A stretch of DNA of 64,000 nt from contig NZ_JAQBOD010000055.1 of NCBI RefSeq assembly GCF_028288205.1, forward strand, positions 36,434 to 100,433, given 5' to 3'. Below are positions 1 to 30,780 of the stretch, in pieces. Positions within the stretch are counted from its first letter, which is position 1. Each line of letters begins with the position of its first letter. The position numbers and the translations under genes are program-made. The notes below the pieces were generated by a model. It was not told where the DNA came from, made no database searches, and worked only from the letters and a program-made list of their open reading frames with translations. Source of the DNA: Mucilaginibacter sp. (GTDB taxonomy: Bacteria; Bacteroidota; Bacteroidia; Sphingobacteriales; Sphingobacteriaceae).

Positions 1-17
1 CTAATTAACATTTTCCT

Positions 18-50
18 TGCATATTTAAAATTTAATGCAAACTTTTGCAT
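18..50. promoter_or_regulatory. Overlapping AT-rich palindromes (TGCAT-N12-ATGCA at 18-39; ATGCAAA-CT-TTTGCAT at 35-50) upstream of the arg operon; candidate ArgR-type operator
   Basis: Half-sites read directly. They lie about 270 nt upstream of the first arg-operon CDS. The resemblance to AT-rich ARG-box palindromes is from memory only. Confidence 0.2.
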
Positions 51-83
51 CAAATTTTAAATAAAACAAACATTATAATTAAA

Positions 84-206
84 ATGAATCTGCAAACCTT
101 AAATAAGCCCACTGTAAGAGCAATTATTGCTCCGGTTGCCGCTGCTTTGGTTTCAACTGTTTTATTTTCTCCATCACGACGAAGGCTATTTATCCCGCGG
201 GTTTAA
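84..206 (+). CDS. Candidate 40-codon upstream ORF, MNLQTLNKPTVRAIIAPVAAALVSTVLFSPSRRRLFIPRV, with three consecutive Arg codons (CGA CGA AGG, 177-185)
   Basis: Hand translation, ATG 84 to TAA 204-206. It sits in the leader of an arginine biosynthesis operon. It could be a chance ORF. Confidence 0.15.
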   Translation: MNLQTLNKPTVRAIIAPVAAALVSTVLFSPSRRRLFIPRV

Positions 207-322
207 TTGCTAAGCTATCCTATTGCCCGTCACCGAAGTTTTTTAAACTTCTTCAACAAAAAATCATCTAATTACTTAAGGTTTAACAAACCATTATTTT
301 AACAGTAATTTTTCTATTTACA

Positions 323-991
323 ATGACTATACAAGATTTTGATATTCAGGTTGCTTCTGCCCAGCATGTAGACTATGCCCCTATCATTTGCGATGAGATG
401 GCAGAGTCGGCAAAGGCACGTGGCACGGGCATTGCCCAACGCTCGCCTGAGTATGTTGCCGATAAAATGCTGGAAGGCAAAGCGGTTATCGCGCTATATA
501 AAGATGGTACCTGGGCAGGTTTTTGCTATATTGAAACCTGGAGCCACGGCGACTTTGTGGCTAACTCTGGCTTAATAGTAGCGCCGCAATACCGTAAAGT
601 AGGTTTAGCTAAGGCTATTAAGCATAAAATATTCGAGCTTTCAAGAACAAAGTACCCTGAAGCAAAGCTATTTGGCCTAACAACCGGACTGGCCGTAATG
701 AAGATAAACTCTGAGTTAGGCTACGAACCGGTAACTTATTCTGAACTTACGCAGGATGAGGATTTTTGGAAAGGCTGCAAAAGCTGCGTTAATTATGATA
801 TATTAACCATGAAAGAGCGCAAAAACTGCATGTGTACCGCTATGCTTTTTGATCCGGCAGAGAAAGCAAAAGATGCGGAGAAGAAAGAGAATGATGATGA
901 CAAGCTTAGAAAAATAACACACAAAGCCACTTTATTTGAGCGTATTGAAAACGCCATTAAAAGTTTTGGTCAGGACTTGAAAGTATTTTAG
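323..991 (+). CDS. GNAT-family acyltransferase, first gene of the arginine operon (putative N-acyl-glutamate synthase)
   Basis: 222 aa. Acetyltransferase core (QYRKVGLAKAI..., LFGLTT) and position ahead of argG/argC/argD/argF'. Confidence 0.75.
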   Translation: MTIQDFDIQVASAQHVDYAPIICDEMAESAKARGTGIAQRSPEYVADKMLEGKAVIALYKDGTWAGFCYIETWSHGDFVANSGLIVAPQYRKVGLAKAIKHKIFELSRTKYPEAKLFGLTTGLAVMKINSELGYEPVTYSELTQDEDFWKGCKSCVNYDILTMKERKNCMCTAMLFDPAEKAKDAEKKENDDDKLRKITHKATLFERIENAIKSFGQDLKVF

Positions 992-994
992 ATA

Positions 995-1028
995 GAGGTT
1001 AAAGGTAAAAGGCGAAAGGTTAAAGGTA
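995..1028. repeat. Left arm of the 34-nt inverted repeat flanking the four-helix-bundle gene
   Basis: GAGGTTAAAGGTAAAAGGCGAAAGGTTAAAGGTA. It is the reverse complement of 1390-1423 at 30/34 positions. Confidence 0.9.
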
Positions 1029-1391
1029 ATGAGAGATTATAAAAAACTCGATGTATGGAAAAAATCACATTTACTGACAAAGCAAATGTATAAAGATGTT
1101 TTGCCATTAATGCCTATTGAAGAGCGCTTTGCTTTAACCAGCCAATTACGTCGGTCAACTTACTCGATTCCTTTAAATATTGTAGAAGGGTGTGGTAAAA
1201 ACACCGATAAAGATTTTGCACATTATCTGGATAATGCTTTGGGTTCGACCCTTGAAGCAGAATATACTTGCTATTTAATTTTCGATCTTGATTATATTAC
1301 CCAAGATCAATACGATTTAATAAACTCATTAATTAACGAAGTAAAGGCAATGTTAATTTCATTTATAAATTTTTTAAGAAATGGAAAATAA
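1029..1391 (+). CDS. Four-helix-bundle protein (23S rRNA intervening-sequence protein family, TIGR02436/PF05635-like)
   Basis: 120 aa. Typical N-terminus YKKLDVWKKSH and motifs LRRS..SIPLNIVEG and F..YL..A.GS..E. Confidence 0.85.
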   Translation: MRDYKKLDVWKKSHLLTKQMYKDVLPLMPIEERFALTSQLRRSTYSIPLNIVEGCGKNTDKDFAHYLDNALGSTLEAEYTCYLIFDLDYITQDQYDLINSLINEVKAMLISFINFLRNGK

Positions 1392-1423
1392 CCTTTTACC
1401 TTTCTCCTTTTACCTTTTACCTC
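1390..1423. repeat. Right arm of the 34-nt inverted repeat flanking the four-helix-bundle gene
   Basis: AACCTTTTACCTTTCTCCTTTTACCTTTTACCTC. It starts inside the stop codon and ends 1 nt before the argG ATG. Confidence 0.9.
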
Positions 1424-1424
1424 A

Positions 1425-2618
1425 ATGAAAAAGAAAGTAGTACTTGCCTACAGCGGCGGATTAGACACCTCATTTTGCTGCATTTATCTAACGCGTGATT
1501 TAGGTTACGAGGTACACTCAGTAATAGTAAACACTGGCGGTTTTAGTGCTGAAGAATTGAACCAGGTGGAAAAGCGCGCTTATGAAATGGGTGTAACATC
1601 GCACCATGTAGTTGATGAGACCGAGAATTTTTACAATACCTGCGTACGTTACCTTATATATGGTAATGTATTAAAAAATAACACCTACCCTCTTTCTGTA
1701 AGTGCGGAGCGCGTTAGTCAGGCAACCGCTATTGCTAACTATGCCAAAGAAATTGGTGCCGAATATGTGGCTCATGGCAGCACAGGCGCCGGTAATGACC
1801 AGGTTAGGTTTGATATGATATTTAATATTCTTATCCCCGAAGTGGGCATCATCACTCCTATTCGCGATCTGAAATTAAGTCGTGAAGCCGAGATAGAATA
1901 CCTTAAAAAGCACGGCGTTGAAATGAACTTTGAAAAAGCGAAGTACTCTATCAACAAAGGCATTTGGGGAACATCAGTTGGTGGTAAAGAAACTTTAACC
2001 TCAAACTTAGGTTTGCCGGAAGAGGCATGGCCAACACAAGTCAGTGAGTCTGAAGTCAGGAGCCTTGAGTTAATTTTTGAAAAGGGTGAATTAGTTGGTA
2101 TAGATGATGAAAGATATGATCATCCGACCAAAGCTATACAGTCTTTACAGGCTATCGCTCAACCTTATGGTATTGGCCGTGATATACACGTTGGCGATAC
2201 TATTATAGGCATTAAGGGCCGTGTTGGCTTTGAAGCTGCCGCGCCGATGATCATTATTAAAGCTCATCATACTTTAGAAAAACATACCTTAACCAAATGG
2301 CAGTTAACGTGGAAAGACCAACTATCTGTGTTTTACGGTAACTGGCTGCACGAAGGGCAGTTTCATGATCCTATTATGCGTAATATGGAAGCATTTTTAA
2401 CTGATACGCAGAAGAATGTAAGCGGCAAAGTATTTGTACAATTGCATCCTTATCGTTTCCAAATAATTGGTATTGAGTCGGATCATGACCTGATGTCGAA
2501 CAAATTTGGCAGCTATGGTGAAATGAATAATTCATGGAGTGGCGAGGATGTAAAAGGGTTCTCAAAAATATTTGGTAACCAGGTAATGATCTATCATAAA
2601 GTTAACGGACCTGAATAA
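1425..2618 (+). CDS. argG: Argininosuccinate synthase
   Basis: 397 aa. N-terminal AYSGGLDTS ATP-binding motif and GSTGAGNDQVRF. Confidence 0.95.
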   Translation: MKKKVVLAYSGGLDTSFCCIYLTRDLGYEVHSVIVNTGGFSAEELNQVEKRAYEMGVTSHHVVDETENFYNTCVRYLIYGNVLKNNTYPLSVSAERVSQATAIANYAKEIGAEYVAHGSTGAGNDQVRFDMIFNILIPEVGIITPIRDLKLSREAEIEYLKKHGVEMNFEKAKYSINKGIWGTSVGGKETLTSNLGLPEEAWPTQVSESEVRSLELIFEKGELVGIDDERYDHPTKAIQSLQAIAQPYGIGRDIHVGDTIIGIKGRVGFEAAAPMIIIKAHHTLEKHTLTKWQLTWKDQLSVFYGNWLHEGQFHDPIMRNMEAFLTDTQKNVSGKVFVQLHPYRFQIIGIESDHDLMSNKFGSYGEMNNSWSGEDVKGFSKIFGNQVMIYHKVNGPE

Positions 2619-2968
2619 TGAATACGGTATTTTCAAAAGGCGAATGTATTGAGCATTATACCTGGGGCGATGATTGCCATGGGTGGACCTTTGTTGATAC
2701 CGAAGCGCTATCCGTCAAGCAAGAATTAATGCCGCCTGATACGGCTGAAAAGATGCATCATCATGAAAAGGCTATCCAATTTTTCTTTATTTTAAGGGGA
2801 AGGGCCAAGTTTACTATTGATGGTAAGGTGATTGAACTAAGGGAGCAGCAGGCCATACAGATCAATCCAAATCAGAAGCATTTTATAGCTAATCATCAAA
2901 ATACCGACCTGGAGTTTATTTTATATTCTTATCCATCAACAAAAAATGACAGAATTGAGATCAAATAA
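2618..2968 (+). CDS. Cupin-domain protein embedded in the arg operon
   Basis: 116 aa. HHHEKA...F.ILRG......G motif pattern. Its start overlaps the argG stop (TAATG) and its 3' end overlaps argC by 23 nt. Confidence 0.65.
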   Translation: MNTVFSKGECIEHYTWGDDCHGWTFVDTEALSVKQELMPPDTAEKMHHHEKAIQFFFILRGRAKFTIDGKVIELREQQAIQINPNQKHFIANHQNTDLEFILYSYPSTKNDRIEIK

Positions 2969-3944
2969 AATAAAAGCCGGAATAATTGGTGGTGCGGGCT
3001 ATACCGGCGGTGAAATGCTGCGGATATTAATTAACCACCCCAACGTAGATATTGCCTTTGTAAATAGTACCAGCAATGCCGGTAATTATATTTACGAGGT
3101 GCATACCGATCTGTTCGGTGATACAGAGCTAAAATTTTCGGACGGACTACAAACCGACATAGATGTACTATTTTTATGCGTCGGCCATGGCGATGCTAAA
3201 AAGTTTTTAGAGGCTAACGCGATACCTGATAATGTGAAGATTATTGACCTAAGCCAGGATTTTAGGTTGAGTAAAAATTCAAAAACAGGTTCAAAAAGTT
3301 TCGTTTACGGTTTACCAGAATTAAACAGGGGCGCTATTAAATCGGCACAAAATATAGCAAACCCGGGCTGCTTTGCTACCTGCCTGCAATTAGGTTTATT
3401 GCCATTAGCCAGCAAAGGATTATTAAATAGCGAGGTTCATATTTCGGCTACAACTGGTTCTACAGGTGCTGGTCAGAGTTTGGCTGCTACCTCTCACTTT
3501 ACCTGGAGAAATGATAATCTTTCGGTTTATAAGGTTTTTAATCACCAGCATTTAAGTGAGATCGGCGAATCTTTAAAACAACTACAACCTACATTTGATC
3601 AAACTTTAAATTTCATACCATATAGGGGCGATTTTACAAGAGGCATTTTTGCATCTATTTATATGGATAGCGAGTTATCCGAAGAAGAAGCGTTGAAGCT
3701 TTATGAGGACTTTTTTGCAGGTCACCCATTTACCCATGTAACCGACAGGAATATAGACCTTAAACAAGTGGTAAATACCAATAAAGTATTTTTACAGGTT
3801 AAGAAACATGGTAATAAACTATTTATTATAAGCATGTTAGATAATTTACTTAAAGGCGCCTCGGGTCAGGCGGTTCAGAACATGAACCTATTATTTGGCT
3901 TTGATGAGCGCGCAGGATTACGACTTAAGGCGACGGGCTTTTAG
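2946..3944 (+). CDS. argC: N-acyl-gamma-glutamyl-phosphate reductase
   Basis: 332 aa. GIIGGAGYTGGE NAD-binding motif and active-site NPGCFAT. Confidence 0.93.
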   Translation: MTELRSNKIKAGIIGGAGYTGGEMLRILINHPNVDIAFVNSTSNAGNYIYEVHTDLFGDTELKFSDGLQTDIDVLFLCVGHGDAKKFLEANAIPDNVKIIDLSQDFRLSKNSKTGSKSFVYGLPELNRGAIKSAQNIANPGCFATCLQLGLLPLASKGLLNSEVHISATTGSTGAGQSLAATSHFTWRNDNLSVYKVFNHQHLSEIGESLKQLQPTFDQTLNFIPYRGDFTRGIFASIYMDSELSEEEALKLYEDFFAGHPFTHVTDRNIDLKQVVNTNKVFLQVKKHGNKLFIISMLDNLLKGASGQAVQNMNLLFGFDERAGLRLKATGF

Positions 3945-4005
3945 CCCCGAGCCACCTCGAAACACTGTATTAAGTATCTAAATTTTATACCTTATCTAAA
4001 TAAAA

Positions 4006-5133
4006 ATGAAATTATTCGACGTATATCCTATTAACCCTATCAATATTGTAAAAGGTGTTGGCAGTTTGGTTTATGATGATAAAGGACAAGAATACCTGGA
4101 CCTGTATGGCGGCCACGCTGTTATCTCTATCGGCCATACTAATACGCATTATGTAAAACGGTTAGAAAATCAATTACATCAAATAGGATTTTATTCTAAC
4201 TCAATAGAAATTCCTTTACAAAAAGAATTAGCCGAGAAATTAGGTCGTGTATCAGGTAAGGAAGATTACCAGTTATTTTTAGTTAACTCGGGCGCTGAAG
4301 CCAATGAGAATGCTTTAAAACTGGCCTCTTTCTATAATGGCAAAAAGAAGGTTATCGCATTTACCGGTGCTTTCCACGGACGGACATCATTAGCAGTAGC
4401 AGTTACAGACAACCCAAAGATAGTTGCCCCTGTTAATGAAACAGATAATGTAATTTTCGTTCCATGGAAAGATGAGGCAGCTTTAGAACAGACTTTTGTT
4501 GATAATGAAATATCATCAGTAATTATTGAAGGTATACAGGGAGTTGGTGGTATACAGGTTGCACCGGAAAGTTTCCTGCAAAAAATAAGGTCGCTTTGCG
4601 ATACCCATAACGCGGTATTTATTGCAGATGGTATACAATGCGGATACGGACGGACAGGCAAGTTTTATTCGCATGATTTTGCCGGGATAAATGCAGATAT
4701 TTATACTATGGCTAAAGGAATGGGTAACGGTTTCCCTATTGGGGCCATAAGTATATCGCCAAAAATACAGCCCGCATATGGTATGTTGGGTACTACTTTT
4801 GGAGGCAACCATTTGGCCTGCGCTGCTGCGTTAGCAGTATTAGAAGTAATGGAACAGGATAATTTACTGCAAAATGCAGCTACAGTTGGTGCATATTTAA
4901 TTGATGAATTGAAGAAATTCAAACAGGTTAAAGAAGTGCGTGGACGTGGCCTAATGATAGGCATAGAACTGCCTGCCGAATATGCACACGCCAAAAAGGA
5001 CCTGCTATTTAAACATCATATATTTACCGGCGAGGCTAAACCAAACGTGATCAGGCTGCTGCCGGCATTAAATTTAACCAAAGCACATGCTGATCAATTT
5101 TTAGAGGCTTTTACAACTGTAATCAATAAATAG
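4006..5133 (+). CDS. argD: Acetyl/succinyl-ornithine aminotransferase (class III PLP aminotransferase)
   Basis: 375 aa. GGHAV...GH, AFHGRT and the FIADGIQCGYGRTGKF motif. Confidence 0.9.
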   Translation: MKLFDVYPINPINIVKGVGSLVYDDKGQEYLDLYGGHAVISIGHTNTHYVKRLENQLHQIGFYSNSIEIPLQKELAEKLGRVSGKEDYQLFLVNSGAEANENALKLASFYNGKKKVIAFTGAFHGRTSLAVAVTDNPKIVAPVNETDNVIFVPWKDEAALEQTFVDNEISSVIIEGIQGVGGIQVAPESFLQKIRSLCDTHNAVFIADGIQCGYGRTGKFYSHDFAGINADIYTMAKGMGNGFPIGAISISPKIQPAYGMLGTTFGGNHLACAAALAVLEVMEQDNLLQNAATVGAYLIDELKKFKQVKEVRGRGLMIGIELPAEYAHAKKDLLFKHHIFTGEAKPNVIRLLPALNLTKAHADQFLEAFTTVINK

Positions 5134-5137
5134 CATA

Positions 5138-5219
5138 TCATTTCGACCAGCGGGAGGAATCTATACATTAGTTGGATATTTGCTTAGCATGTATAGATTT
5201 CCCGCTGCGCTCGAAATGA
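5138..5219. repeat. REP-like palindrome, family A (TCATTTCGA...GGAATCTATACAT / ATGTATAGATTTCC...TCGAAATGA)
   Basis: Arms of about 31 nt at 5138-5168 and 5189-5219, imperfectly complementary. Located between argD and argF'. Related copy at 21691-21798. Confidence 0.85.
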
Positions 5220-5238
5220 CAAAGAATTTTAATAAATT

Positions 5239-6186
5239 ATGAAACTATTCTCTTCCGTTAACGACGTAACCGATATTAAAGCACTTGTTGCCGAAGCATT
5301 GGAGTTAAAGCAAAACCCTTACGCGCACCAGCATTTGGGTAAAAACAAAACATTGGGACTGGTTTTTCTTAACCCAAGCTTACGTACGCGCATGAGCACG
5401 CAGAAAGCTGCCCTTAACCTGGGGATGAACGTTATGGTGCTTAATGTAGATAAGGAAGGATGGGCATTAGAGCTTCGTGACAACGTTGTAATGAACGGCA
5501 CTACTGTAGAGCACATTCGCGAAGCTGCGGCTGTTATGGGGCAGTATGTGGACATTATAGGGGTACGCTCTTTTCCCGGACTAAAAGATCGTAATGAGGA
5601 TTATGCCGAAGTAGTATTTAATAAGTTTGTTGAGTTTTGCGGTGTGCCGTTGGTAAGTTTAGAATCGGCCACCCGTCACCCACTACAAAGTTTAGCCGAT
5701 CTGATCTCTATAGAAGAATTAAAAACTAAAGCACGCCCTAAAGTTGTATTAACCTGGGCACCACATATTAAGCCACTACCACAGGCTGTACCAAACTCTT
5801 TTGCCGAATGGATATGTAAGGCTGATGTTGATTTTACTATTGCCCAACCTGCCGGTTATGAACTTTGTACCGATTTTACACAAGGCGCTACCATCACCAC
5901 TAACCAGGATGAGGCTTTAGCTGACGCTGATTTTATTTACGTAAAAAACTGGTCGGCTTTTGAGCCTTACGGGCAGATATTCCCGGGTAATGAAGATTGG
6001 ATGCTGACCAATGAAAAATTAAAGATCACCAACAATGCAAAGGTAATGCATTGCTTACCAGTGCGCCGTAATTTGGAGTTATCAGCTGAGGTTTTAGACG
6101 GACCGAACTCAATTGTGGTTCACGAAGCTGGTAATCGTGTATGGGCAGCTCAGGCAGTATTGAAGCAAATGTTGGAGAGTTTATAA
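5239..6186 (+). CDS. argF': N-succinyl (or N-acetyl)-ornithine carbamoyltransferase, AOTCase/SOTCase subfamily
   Basis: 315 aa. SLRTR, HPLQSLADL, HCLPVRRN and the proline-rich loop WAPHIKPLPQAVPNS typical of the acyl-ornithine transcarbamylases. Confidence 0.85.
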   Translation: MKLFSSVNDVTDIKALVAEALELKQNPYAHQHLGKNKTLGLVFLNPSLRTRMSTQKAALNLGMNVMVLNVDKEGWALELRDNVVMNGTTVEHIREAAAVMGQYVDIIGVRSFPGLKDRNEDYAEVVFNKFVEFCGVPLVSLESATRHPLQSLADLISIEELKTKARPKVVLTWAPHIKPLPQAVPNSFAEWICKADVDFTIAQPAGYELCTDFTQGATITTNQDEALADADFIYVKNWSAFEPYGQIFPGNEDWMLTNEKLKITNNAKVMHCLPVRRNLELSAEVLDGPNSIVVHEAGNRVWAAQAVLKQMLESL

Positions 6187-6210
6187 ACTTATATGGCAAA
6201 ATTGAAATAA

Positions 6211-7458
6211 TTATTTACCATCAGGCTTAATTGATGCGTTAATAACCCTATTCAAGGTTAACCCCTGCACTATCACCGAGAATATCACTATAAAATAACT
6301 ACCTGCCAATATAATATGCCGATAGGGACTGGCAGGTAATGATAGCGCCAACGCAATTGATATGCCCCCACGCAATCCTGCCCAGGTAAGAATATTTACA
6401 CTGCTATAACTAATATTTAATGTACGACGCAAAAAAGTTAAGGGTAAACTAATACTTAGCCAACGTGCTATTAATATCACAAATATTCCCACCCCACCTA
6501 TCAACCAGTAATTATTTAAATAGGGTAAATTGATCATTTGCAGGCCTATCATTACAAATAAAATTGTGTTTAGCATTTCATCTATTAGCTGCCAAAACTT
6601 CTCGAGCGCCTGGTGCGAGTGCTCAGTACTATCAATATTTATAGTTTGGTTACCGGCAAATAACCCGGCGCACACAACAGCCAACGGGATAGAAAAATCC
6701 ATAAACGCAGCTACAACAGAAATGCTCATAACTAATGCAAGTGATACCAAAACAATGGTTTGAAAATCAGTAATGGTTTTCATTAGCCGGAAAGCAATAA
6801 AACCAAATACAATTCCCAAAATGATTCCACCAAACACCTCACGAATAAATAAAATGCTTGTTTTGGCAAAATCTAATTTGTCGCTGCCTGACTGCGTAAA
6901 CTCTAATATGGTAATAAATAGTACCAGCCCTATACCATCATTAAATAAGGATTCGCCGGAAATTATAGTTTCCAGGTTTACCGGCAATTTTGAATTTTTG
7001 ATGATCGCTCCTACTGCTACCGGGTCGGTTGGCGAAATCAGCGCACCAAATAAAAAGCAGTAAACCAACGGCACATGGATATGAAACAGCGTGGTAACAC
7101 CATAAAACAATCCACCAAAAATAGCGGTTGAAAATATAACCCCTAACGTACTTAGTATAAATACGGGCCGCATTTCTTTTTTTAATCTTTTAGTATTTAA
7201 TGAAAACGAACCGGAGAAAAGTAAAAAACCCAGCATAATGTTTAATACCGTGCTCGAAAAATTTATATTCTTTGCCAGTAACGTAAGATATCGTTCAATG
7301 CCTGGGTTTAGCTTATCAATAGTAATAGTTATTACCGATACCAGTATAGCTATAGTAACTATACCAATTGTACCCGGTAGTTTTATAAAGCGGGCATTAA
7401 TGTAGGAGTAGATGGCACTCACTATAACCAATAAAGCAATAATTACAAACAGATCCAT
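6211..7458 (-). CDS. Na+/H+ (cation:proton) antiporter, CPA1/NhaP-like
   Basis: 415 aa polytopic membrane protein. Contains SPTDPVAV and ESLFNDG motifs. Confidence 0.8.
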   Translation of the reverse strand: MDLFVIIALLVIVSAIYSYINARFIKLPGTIGIVTIAILVSVITITIDKLNPGIERYLTLLAKNINFSSTVLNIMLGFLLFSGSFSLNTKRLKKEMRPVFILSTLGVIFSTAIFGGLFYGVTTLFHIHVPLVYCFLFGALISPTDPVAVGAIIKNSKLPVNLETIISGESLFNDGIGLVLFITILEFTQSGSDKLDFAKTSILFIREVFGGIILGIVFGFIAFRLMKTITDFQTIVLVSLALVMSISVVAAFMDFSIPLAVVCAGLFAGNQTINIDSTEHSHQALEKFWQLIDEMLNTILFVMIGLQMINLPYLNNYWLIGGVGIFVILIARWLSISLPLTFLRRTLNISYSSVNILTWAGLRGGISIALALSLPASPYRHIILAGSYFIVIFSVIVQGLTLNRVINASIKPDGK

Positions 7459-7484
7459 TTTAATGGTATTAAGTTATGACTATA

Positions 7485-8786
7485 TTACTTTTCAGGTTCA
7501 ACCGTTCTGGTTTGACGGTTAAAACTTCTTATTATTAAGCGGTTATCACTGTTTTTGGTAAAATAATTTATGGCCCAGGTTAAAAAAACCGACGTTTTAT
7601 TTGAAAAGCCCGCTAACGACATGATATGTACAAAACCCCATAAAAGCCAGGCAAAAAATCCCTGGAAATGTAGCCTGCCCAAATCTGCTACCGATTTATT
7701 ACGCCCAATGGTAGCCAGCGTACCTTTATCATGATATTTAAAAGGTTCTGTCGGTTCTGCATTTATTAAATGAACCAGGTTTTTGGCCAGCCATGCCCCT
7801 TGTTGTATAGCTGCAGGTGCAACACCCGGATGGCCGTTAGGATATTCTTCGCTTATTATAGCTGATACATCCCCTATAGCAAAAATATTTTGATAGCCCT
7901 TTACCCTATTTATTTCATCGGTTTGTATGCGCGAGCCACGGGTTAACGTAGCATTTGTTATTCCCTGGGGTACCTCGCCCATTACACCTGCTGCCCAAAA
8001 TACGTTACGGGTTTTTATCGTCATTCCATCATCTATCTTTAATATTAACCCGTCATAGCTTTCTACATGAACGCTGTTATATATGGTAACATCATTTGCC
8101 AAAAGAAACTGTTTAGCCTTTTTTGAAGCCCCGTCAGACATTGCTGCCAGTAGCCTGTCTTTGCCTTCTACCAAATAAACGTTCATGTCATGTTTACTCA
8201 GTCCATGATAATCTTTTTGCAGAATTAAATGTCGCATCTCGGCTAAAGCCCCTGAAAGTTCAACGCCTGTAGGGCCGCCTCCTACTACTACAAAAGTCAT
8301 TAAGGCATCTTTCTCGTCTTTTTCTTTGGTTATCATGGCCATCTCTAAATGCTGTAGAATAAGGCCCCGTAAGTTTAATGCCTCCGGTACATTTTTCATT
8401 GGCATTGCACAATTTTCAATTGTTGTATTACCAAAAAAGTTGGTATTTGAGCCTGTTGCAATAACCAAATAATCATAATGAATATTGCCTATATTGGTTG
8501 TAAGGATATTTGTTTCAGGGTTAATAGCTTCTACATGAGCCAGATTAAAACTAAAATTGTCCTGACAGGTAAATATTCTACGGATAGGAAAAGCGATAGA
8601 ATCGGCCGGAATAGCACCCATTGCCACCTGGTATAATAAAGGCTGAAAGGTATGGTAATTGTGCTTATCAAGCATTAGTATATCAACCGGTGCTTTTTTG
8701 AGTTTTTTTGCCAATTGTAAACCAGCAAACCCGCCGCCAATAATTACTACGCGGGGTTTGCTATTTTTTTGTTGATCCATGTACAA
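7485..8786 (-). CDS. ndh: Type II NADH:quinone oxidoreductase (NDH-2)
   Basis: 433 aa. Two dinucleotide folds (VVIIGGGFAGL, VVVGGGPTGVE) and the IFAIGD motif. Confidence 0.9.
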   Translation of the reverse strand: MYMDQQKNSKPRVVIIGGGFAGLQLAKKLKKAPVDILMLDKHNYHTFQPLLYQVAMGAIPADSIAFPIRRIFTCQDNFSFNLAHVEAINPETNILTTNIGNIHYDYLVIATGSNTNFFGNTTIENCAMPMKNVPEALNLRGLILQHLEMAMITKEKDEKDALMTFVVVGGGPTGVELSGALAEMRHLILQKDYHGLSKHDMNVYLVEGKDRLLAAMSDGASKKAKQFLLANDVTIYNSVHVESYDGLILKIDDGMTIKTRNVFWAAGVMGEVPQGITNATLTRGSRIQTDEINRVKGYQNIFAIGDVSAIISEEYPNGHPGVAPAAIQQGAWLAKNLVHLINAEPTEPFKYHDKGTLATIGRNKSVADLGRLHFQGFFAWLLWGFVHIMSLAGFSNKTSVFLTWAINYFTKNSDNRLIIRSFNRQTRTVEPEK

Positions 8787-30676: not shown

Positions 30677-30780
30677 GATTTCACAGATTTAGAAAAGGAT
30701 TACACCGATTAAAATAAGGATTGCACAGATTTGTGTGATCCTTTTTTTAATCGGTGTAATCAAACAAAATCAGTGAAATC
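30677..30780. repeat. Triple-nested REP-like palindrome, family E-like
   Basis: Outer arms GATTTCACAGATTT / AAAATCAGTGAAATC. Middle arms GGATTACACCGATTAAAA / TTTTAATCGGTGTAATC. Inner arms AGGATTGCACA / TGTGTGATCCT. Located between convergent genes. Confidence 0.85.

Follow-up and report, generated by a model that had tools for sequence, protein, structure and literature searches.

Open reading frame (ORF)-bearing intervening sequences (IVSs) are found in the 23S rRNA of Leptospira, Coxiella burnetii and Brucella, where an S23p-type protein is encoded in a loop and the complementary flanks form a long stem. In the Coxiella IVS the S23p ORF is immediately preceded, in the 5' arm, by three to four tandem GACAGAT heptamers, the first of which is the site where RNase III cuts (PMC4990558). 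These IVSs are the closest known system to the element described here, a PF05635 gene enclosed by two complementary arms at the junction between a GNAT acetyltransferase gene and argG of Mucilaginibacter sp. The gene and its arms are referred to as the cassette, and the 64,000-nucleotide stretch that was analyzed (contig NZ_JAQBOD010000055.1, positions 36,434 to 100,433) as the window. The cassette shares with the IVSs the S23p protein in the loop, the flanks that can form a long stem, the heptamers before the ORF and a sporadic distribution with presence and absence between relatives. The defining location, however, is different: 23S rRNA IVSs are inserted in helix 25 or 45, whereas the cassette lies in a protein-coding polycistron. 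In addition, the Coxiella IVS ORF is decaying and probably untranslated, while the cassette ORF is under strong purifying selection, with ratios of nonsynonymous to synonymous divergence (dN/dS) of 0.03-0.09. With some reservation, we consider the cassette to be probably an operon-resident counterpart of the ORF-bearing rRNA IVS, in which a PF05635 gene lies between inverted arrays of about five heptamers whose pairing would loop out the ORF and which would also act as binding sites.

Intergenic heptamer arrays have been described as GGGAATC in Xanthomonas (70-75 as convergent pairs), STRR and GGGGAYT in cyanobacteria and TAACTGA in Beggiatoaceae (PMC4692102, PMC4679880). Like the cassette arms, they consist of tandem 7-nt units, often beside start or stop codons, inside operons and in convergent pairs, but most of them are without a PF05635 ORF, and the respective studies made no link to this family and proposed G-quadruplexes or unidentified post-transcriptional regulators instead. 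One of the Xanthomonas arrays abuts XCC0516, a crystallized S23p homolog; it lies 6 nt from bccP (XCC0517) and overlaps the XCC0516 start, which the authors left unremarked (Rehm et al., supplement of PMC4692102). In the full-text literature, with subscription journals outside our reach, no paper was found that links PF05635 to heptamer arrays or describes such operon cassettes. S23p/IVS proteins have been crystallized twice and are abundant in Bacteroidota and cyanobacteria, yet to our knowledge they have no known function. Likewise, we know of no reason why, among long simple-sequence repeats, it is heptamers that are over-represented in many bacterial genomes.

Other known systems resemble the cassette in single aspects. 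Avd of diversity-generating retroelements (DGRs) has the same four-helix-bundle fold, is pentameric in crystals like the S23p homologs and is part of a ribonucleoprotein, but its identity to the cassette protein is only 12% in a structural alignment, and the cassette has GNAT and argG as neighbors rather than an adjacent reverse transcriptase or a template/variable repeat pair. Membership in a DGR was rejected, with 22.6 bits for the NCBIfam model DivGenRetAVD against a cut-off of 80. MITEs (miniature transposable elements with inverted repeats), repetitive extragenic palindromes (REPs) and bacterial interspersed mosaic elements (BIMEs) share the short inverted-repeat form in operon intergenic regions, the excess of ORF-less copies and the presence/absence polymorphism. 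The cassette arms, in contrast, are arrays of 7-nt units and not unique terminal repeats, and no transposase or gene of the REP-associated tyrosine transposase (RAYT) type is present; the inverted arrays at both ends match the terminal inverted repeats of DNA transposons in form only. The resemblance to TRAP (trp RNA-binding attenuation protein) and similar rings that recognize tandem RNA repeats is limited to a putative mode of action, namely a ring-shaped oligomer and, beside a start codon, tandem repeats at about one unit per subunit, without homology.

Anatomy of the cassette and its product

The cassette and its immediate neighbors comprise the following features.

323..991, + strand: GNAT acetyltransferase (Pfam Acetyltransf_1), gene 1 of the arginine operon, stop codon at 989-991, upstream neighbor of the cassette
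995..1028, + strand: left arm, purine-rich, about five degenerate heptamers (AGGTTAA AGGTAAA AGGCGAA AGGTTAA AGGTA) in an exact-spacing chain of five
1029..1391, + strand: cassette ORF, 120 aa, PF05635/TIGR02436 four-helix-bundle protein (S23p/23S-IVS family), stop codon TAA at 1389-1391
1390..1423, + strand: right arm, pyrimidine-rich, about five heptamers, complement of the left arm
986..1432, + strand: whole foldable unit, with extended pairing of 986-1030 and 1388-1432
1425..2618, + strand: argG (argininosuccinate synthase), ATG at 1425, downstream neighbor of the cassette

The left arm (GAGGTTAAAGGTAAAAGGCGAAAGGTTAAAGGTA) and the right arm are reverse complements at 30 of 34 positions, and a repeat search extended their pairing without gaps to 45 nt at 84% (986-1030 with 1388-1432). 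The left arm ends at 1028 immediately before the ATG at 1029, while the first base of the right arm is the second one of the TAA stop codon, and the cassette fills the gap between GNAT and argG with only 3 nt free between the GNAT stop and the left arm and 1 nt between the right arm and the argG ATG. Re-measurement thus reproduced the coordinates and counts of the initial annotation, and the description of a discrete, IVS-type cassette at an operon junction, with an S23p/PF05635 ORF fitted flush between complementary arms, was borne out.

What the initial annotation overlooked is that the arms are heptamer arrays. Tandem Repeats Finder (TRF) reported both as period-7 tandem arrays, with 4.9 copies of AGGTAAA at 996-1029 and 4.6 copies of ACCTTTT at 1391-1422. 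The unit has the form AAAGGNN upstream and its complement downstream, in a convergent arrangement, and the two arms were the only heptamer chains of at least four units in the 64-kb window, where about 0.6 would be expected by chance. The duplex between the two arms reached -48.7 kcal/mol, compared to a median of -16.5 and a best value of -36.3 kcal/mol when the upstream flanks of the loci described below were paired with shuffled downstream flanks. RNA folding of 970-1450 placed the long-range stem in both the minimum free energy and the centroid structure (z = -3.46), with no shuffled sequence folding as well. The inverted pairing of the arms is not due to chance. Through the pairing of 986-1030 with 1388-1432, the GNAT stop and the argG start come to lie together at the base of the predicted stem.

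The encoded protein matched PF05635 with 112.9 bits (cut-off 33.8, E 1e-32) and TIGR02436 with 105.3 bits (cut-off 24, E 1.9e-30); no other Pfam or NCBIfam domain and no transposase or recombinase match was found in it. Among structures, PDB entry 2GSC was matched at E 2e-14, and an AlphaFold2 model predicted a four-helix bundle (predicted local distance difference test 94.6) that superimposed on XCC0516 (2GSC) with a template-modeling (TM) score of 0.91 and a root-mean-square deviation of 1.2 Å and on BT_0352 (2RLD) with a TM score of 0.81. The fold shared with Avd, which had been pointed out before, was recovered as well, with TM 0.79 to 4DWL and about 0.79 to Avd within DGR ribonucleoprotein structures. 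Both crystal entries, 2GSC and 2RLD, contain five chains, and XCC0516 is cited as a homopentamer in PMC4990558. Compared with its closest copies the cassette protein had a dN/dS of 0.026-0.056, with a median of 0.09 over 31 pairs, a constraint as strong as that on ArgG.

Distribution in arginine operons and beyond

Homologs were collected from one genome per species, and the best 80 of 159 matches were retained, a sample biased towards this one lineage. The homolog resided inside an arginine operon in 79 of these 80 loci, and GNAT homologs head the same operon in more than 60 loci. With secondary copies included, 101 genes were placed, of which 100 were at arginine operon junctions, distributed as follows.

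argC|argD: 60 copies
GNAT|argG: 21 copies
argD|argF': 16 copies
argG|argC: 1 copy
cut contig ends (L007, L055): 2 copies, read as GNAT|argG and argC|argD
after a dinB-type polymerase gene (L005): 1 copy

One to three copies were present per arginine operon, all of them in the orientation of the operon (100/100), and the genomes belong to the Sphingobacteriales and Chitinophagales, with Mucilaginibacter, Pedobacter, Chitinophagaceae and Segetibacter among the taxa. Protein identity to the window copy correlated with ArgG and ArgC identity (Spearman rho 0.76-0.78), consistent with a lineage that was mostly inherited vertically with the operon. A rare pseudogenized cassette was noted in L064 (5559-5914), where the argD|argF' copy is frameshifted (two high-scoring segment pairs, residues 1-54 and 57-119) and its upstream array is kept.

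Nearly every copy is bracketed by complementary arrays, with a median cognate duplex of -30.5 kcal/mol compared to -16.5 kcal/mol with shuffled downstream flanks. At loci with an apparently weak duplex, the upstream arm is either more distant or enlarged to 14-17 units (L048, L009), sometimes in combination with an additional internal hairpin. Arrays typically consist of 4-5 units and overall of 3 to 17, and the flush fit recurs, with medians of 3 nt from the upstream stop codon to the array and 7 nt from the array to the downstream ATG. The expectation that paralogs would be flanked by the same AAAGGT-rich inverted repeats held for the inverted repeats but not for the motif, since other heptamers are used. 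Divergent paralogs (45-60% identical) in the same operons have AAAGTTG, AAAGCTT, AAAGACT or AATGCTG units, and Pedobacter copies TAAGGTN/TAGGGTT units. The paralog heptamers form GGT-, GTT-, GCT-, GAC- and TGC-type classes, each matched in inverted form between its two arms; at the level of the repeat unit, the arms thus covary, and the unit also co-varies with the protein clade. As repeat arrays, the arms have no unambiguous alignment. Neither of the two patterns that the initial annotation had named as contrary to its reading, a lack of inverted repeats at the paralogs and a fixed junction with non-complementary flanks, was found.

Several arrays differ in size or unit. Upstream arrays of 14-17 heptamers are located at 3700-3800 of L048 and 3780-3900 of L009, and an array-containing unit of about 100 nt is triplicated in L046 (2350-2650). 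Array length evidently changes in both directions, with slippage as the presumed cause. In L037 (3960-3995) the array that immediately precedes the ORF consists of CCCTAAA repeats; CCCTAAA is the plant-type telomere unit, and this match is probably a coincidence.

Comparison with the nearest relatives revealed both occupied and empty junctions. In L003, the closest relative (GNAT 98% identical; synonymous divergence (dS) of flanking genes 0.34-0.66), the GNAT|argG junction is a 31-nt spacer without heptamers and the cassette sits at argC|argD, the reverse of the window, where argC|argD is empty and GNAT|argG occupied. An empty site, for which the initial annotation had suggested looking in relatives, therefore exists. 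In a neighbor-joining tree, copies from GNAT|argG and argC|argD are interleaved within Mucilaginibacter, while the two copies of L010 cluster together, as do those of L011. With a dS of 0.90 the window and L003 copies are about twice as diverged as their flanking genes, while a dS of 0.96 separates the window copy from that of L001, which is also located at GNAT|argG, compared to 0.87-2.8 for the flanks. From these comparisons, the window copy is orthologous to the GNAT|argG copy of the more distant relative L001, and L003 has kept only the argC|argD paralog. The simplest history is an ancestor occupied at both junctions, with one or the other copy subsequently lost cleanly, arms included, in the descending lineages. 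The idea of a precise insertion at GNAT|argG is accordingly retained for the cassette character but not for an insertion at this site, for which the L001 and L003 data are better read as an old residence followed by reciprocal clean loss: the cassette would be old at this junction of the window, and the sister species would have lost it. A target-site duplication was not visible at the empty junctions (L003 and window), which hold unrelated spacer, so that boundaries are not comparable base by base. Relocation does occur, as indicated by the copy in L005, which nests among the arginine operon copies in the tree yet follows dinB and is 83% identical.

The GNAT|argG junction also holds other structured sequences. 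A cassette-free junction in L004 (1385-1430) contains a 28-nt perfect palindrome (GTAGAGACGCAATGCATTGCGTCTCTAC), of which two related copies were found in L002 (860-950), a fragment in L003 (1420-1450) and none in the window. This junction seems to attract structured inserts.

The same architecture recurs around nearly every relative examined, in several bacterial phyla. A tblastn search of plasmids yielded 19 PF05635 genes, mostly cyanobacterial, and heptamer arrays adjoin 13 of the 14 inspected (cyanobacteria, Gemmatimonadota). Their units include AGTCAGG (Nostoc, Aulosira), GGTGACA (Anabaena 90), GGGAAAA (Geminocystis, Nostoc), GGAGATA (Picosynechococcus), CTGCCNT (Stanieria, Nostoc) and, on Nostoc edaphicum plasmid pNe_5 (L214), eight and four copies of GGGAGTA; usually the two arrays are inverted and the purine-rich one is upstream. 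Contexts on plasmids include cas6|cas4, cas10|cmr3 and runs of co-oriented plasmid genes. In gut Bacteroides, BT_0352-type genes are located between araD and araA with TTGACAA arrays upstream and TTGTCAA arrays downstream, and the same units bracket a 79%-identical BT_0352 relative between an aminotransferase and a DAHP synthase gene. A stable RNA context other than rRNA is found in L118 (1072-1589, minus strand), where a tRNA-Ser(GGA) gene is directly followed, in the same orientation, by a family ORF and its AAAGGCG-type arrays.

Cassettes within cas operons were observed in Pseudanabaena (L081), Anabaena 90 (L084) and Picosynechococcus (L210), twice at cas6|cas4 and once at cas10|cmr3. A "23S rRNA IVP" is listed among CRISPR-associated proteins (PMC10910872), and this reported association may reflect passive insertion rather than a CRISPR function.

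In metagenomes, a scan for four AAGGNNA units recovered at least 120 loci, and a family ORF was identified by hidden Markov model in seven of the 120 matches listed. Among these listed matches, ORF-less heptamer hairpins are far commoner than ORF-bearing ones, paired arrays always have the purine array in front (17 to 0), and their loops measure 4-118 nt, or 377-421 nt when they contain the ORF. ORF-less hairpins were also found at other arginine operon junctions. Also among the matches listed, ORF-less AAAGGNN/NNCCTTT hairpins occurred in contigs of 55-66% G+C (L091, L101, L114, L134, L148, L175), far from Bacteroidota composition, which indicates that the AAAGGNN unit is not lineage-specific.

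Possible modes of action and alternative explanations

Scans of positions 1-8000 for sigma-70-type promoters and terminators gave no signal above chance and none within the cassette, and the Bacteroidetes -7 motif TAnnTTTG occurred at chance frequency with none on the + strand within the cassette, a result that lends weak support to read-through only. Together with the co-orientation, the missing promoter and terminator signals suggest that read-through presumably includes the cassette in the arginine polycistron. In the transcript the arrays would pair in vivo as an imperfect duplex of about 35-45 bp that loops out the ORF. Such a duplex would bring the GNAT stop to within a few nucleotides of the argG start at the stem base, so that the cassette could be tolerated at tight operon junctions. 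RNase III usually needs a stem of roughly 20 bp, and the cassette stem is longer. By analogy with the ORF-bearing 23S rRNA IVSs, RNase III processing of the cassette stem is plausible, and the enzyme would probably cleave it; the uncoupling of the GNAT and argG messages put forward in the initial annotation is a putative effect. The arrays may have a second role. A stem needs no periodicity, yet all lineages use 7-nt units, which argues that the arrays are recognition sites as well, and the encoded ring protein is proposed as the binder because it is the only constant candidate reader of the arrays. It would most likely bind them as a pentameric ring, as Avd binds RNA in DGR particles. The lineage has resided in the arginine operon since before the split of Sphingobacteriales and Chitinophagales, with occasional duplication to another junction, rarely to another locus, and with clean loss that includes the arms. 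For movement, recombination between a cassette arm and an ORF-less hairpin with a matching unit at another junction would suffice without a transposase.

A number of observations weigh against this reading. Stem mismatches comprise 47 G·U and 63 A·C pairs, i.e. there is no G·U excess and no signal of selection on a sense RNA duplex. Positional covariation between cognate arms of the AAGG class is weak: they pair only modestly better than non-cognate arms do (median 18 and 14), and the cognate arm was the best partner in only 4 of 49 cases. The complementarity may therefore simply follow from the use of one unit for the arrays on both sides. The arrays of Pseudanabaena L081 (1400-1960; 13 GCTAAAA upstream, 10 GCCAAAA downstream) and Gemmatirosa L209 (1090-1660; CTGCCCT on both sides) are in direct orientation, which makes a stem impossible and means that pairing cannot be the whole story. 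The plasmid genes of L082, L088 and L214 are antisense to one or both neighbors, and the L214 cassette, an exception to co-orientation, lies on the opposite strand between the genes for ribonucleotide reductase alpha and beta. A search of the whole window at Rfam gathering thresholds returned no family match and no rRNA. A strict rule of five units for five subunits was rejected with arrays of about 3 to 17 units. Finally, the cassette protein is not basic (isoelectric point 6.1; family median 7.7), whereas Avd is, which weakens the case for nucleic acid binding; a highly basic nucleic-acid binder is unsupported.

Part of this evidence would suit an arrangement in which the arrays serve primarily as sites where the ring protein binds single-stranded RNA, similar to TRAP with its triplet repeats, and the cassette is an autoregulatory or operon-regulatory module whose binding competes with arm pairing and sets translation or stability of the neighboring cistrons. 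The 7-nt periodicity that is universal despite differing sequences, the five chains per crystal entry of the homologs, the role of Avd as a component of a solved DGR ribonucleoprotein, the typical array of 4-5 units, the direct-orientation arrays in which pairing is impossible and a purifying selection as strong as on the arginine enzymes are all in line with it. The near-neutral charge of the protein, arrays of 8-17 units and, among the matches listed, ORF-less arrays in many contigs without a family member nearby are less easily accommodated, and we regard this explanation as possible but doubtful. An element that moves at the DNA level would instead use the arrays as terminal or subterminal repeats, bound by the bundle protein which recruits host recombination or replication, with the ORF-less hairpins as MITE-like derivatives and the RNA stem as incidental. 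Sites that are occupied or cleanly empty between relatives and copies that have moved to other junctions or to dinB, ara and aro operons are features of such an element, as are, among the matches listed, the excess of ORF-less over ORF-bearing paired arrays and their single polarity (17:0), which defined ends would give; the lack of G·U bias and the repeat unit that co-varies with the protein clade point the same way. The sole product, however, is a 120-aa helical bundle without a transposase, recombinase or nuclease domain, and no target-site duplication is visible, though the empty sites cannot be aligned. The complete co-orientation in arginine operons (100/100) fits dependence on host transcription and not random insertion, movement is a rare event in view of the divergence of the protein in step with host genes (rho about 0.77), and the 64-kb window contains a single copy, no second PF05635 paralog being found there. 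We consider a DNA-level element unlikely.

A domesticated regulator whose function is tied to arginine biosynthesis would account for the residence in arginine operons in 79 of the best 80 of 159 matches, across two orders, as well as for the strong selection on the protein and its co-divergence with ArgG and ArgC. Its position, however, is not fixed (four junctions, one to three copies, clean losses), the 83%-identical copy follows dinB, relatives occur in ara, aro, acc, cas, nrd and tRNA contexts as well as in 23S rRNA, and the sample itself favors one lineage. An arginine-specific function was rejected on account of the varied junctions and non-arginine contexts, and such a regulator is highly improbable. 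Least probable of all, to the point of being negligible, is an inverted repeat that arose by chance or that, as a common intergenic terminator or a hairpin of the REP kind, has no connection with the ORF. Intergenic palindromes are common, and L002 and L004 have the different 28-nt palindrome at the very same junction, but the duplex energy is far removed from the shuffled values, neither a T-run nor a terminator site was found in the cassette, and the recurrence of the ORF-plus-array linkage in more than 120 independent genes refutes this explanation.

If the interpretation as an operon-resident counterpart of the rRNA IVS is correct, three loose ends would be joined, i.e. the function of S23p/IVS proteins, the purpose of heptamer arrays and the tolerance of foreign ORFs in tightly coupled operons. 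A broader reading, which we offer tentatively and which may well prove too wide, is that PF05635 ring proteins are sequence-specific heptamer readers and that bacterial intergenic heptamer arrays (AAAGGNN and TTGACAA in Bacteroidota, STRR-like in cyanobacteria, GGGAATC in Xanthomonas) are ORF-less members or targets of one ancient element family, for which the rRNA IVS would merely be the context noticed first. Such a protein-plus-repeat system would insert into transcripts (mRNA, tRNA, rRNA, cas operons), be folded or cut out at the RNA level, and have each paralog co-evolving with its own heptamer. BT_0352 between araD and araA of Bacteroides thetaiotaomicron and XCC0516 next to accB of Xanthomonas campestris are tractable loci for such questions. 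For annotation, PF05635 genes and their arms should be recognized as one unit.

Other features of the operon and the window

According to the ORF list and domain searches, the arginine operon occupies the first 6.2 kb of the window on the + strand. Downstream of argG it contains the following features.

2618-2968, + strand: cupin gene, 116 aa, between argG and argC
2946-3944, + strand: argC
3945..4005, + strand: empty argC|argD junction without heptamer remnant, in relatives the commonest cassette site (60/101 copies)
4006-5133, + strand: argD-like transaminase
5239-6186, + strand: acetylornithine-type carbamoyltransferase (argF')

The cupin gene shares bases with both neighbors, its ATG with the argG stop and 23 nt of its 3' end with argC; a gene of this kind is present in the operons of some relatives, while others are without one. 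About 260 nt upstream of the first arginine gene, at 22-63, the window contains a 20-nt near-perfect palindrome (TATTTAAAATTTAATGCAAA / TTTGCATCAAATTTTAAATA; 95% complementary, 2-nt spacer) that could be a candidate operator for the arginine operon. The top TRF score in the window belonged to a 21-nt tandem repeat (GATTACACAGATTTAAAAAAG) present in 2.7 copies at 30677-30732.

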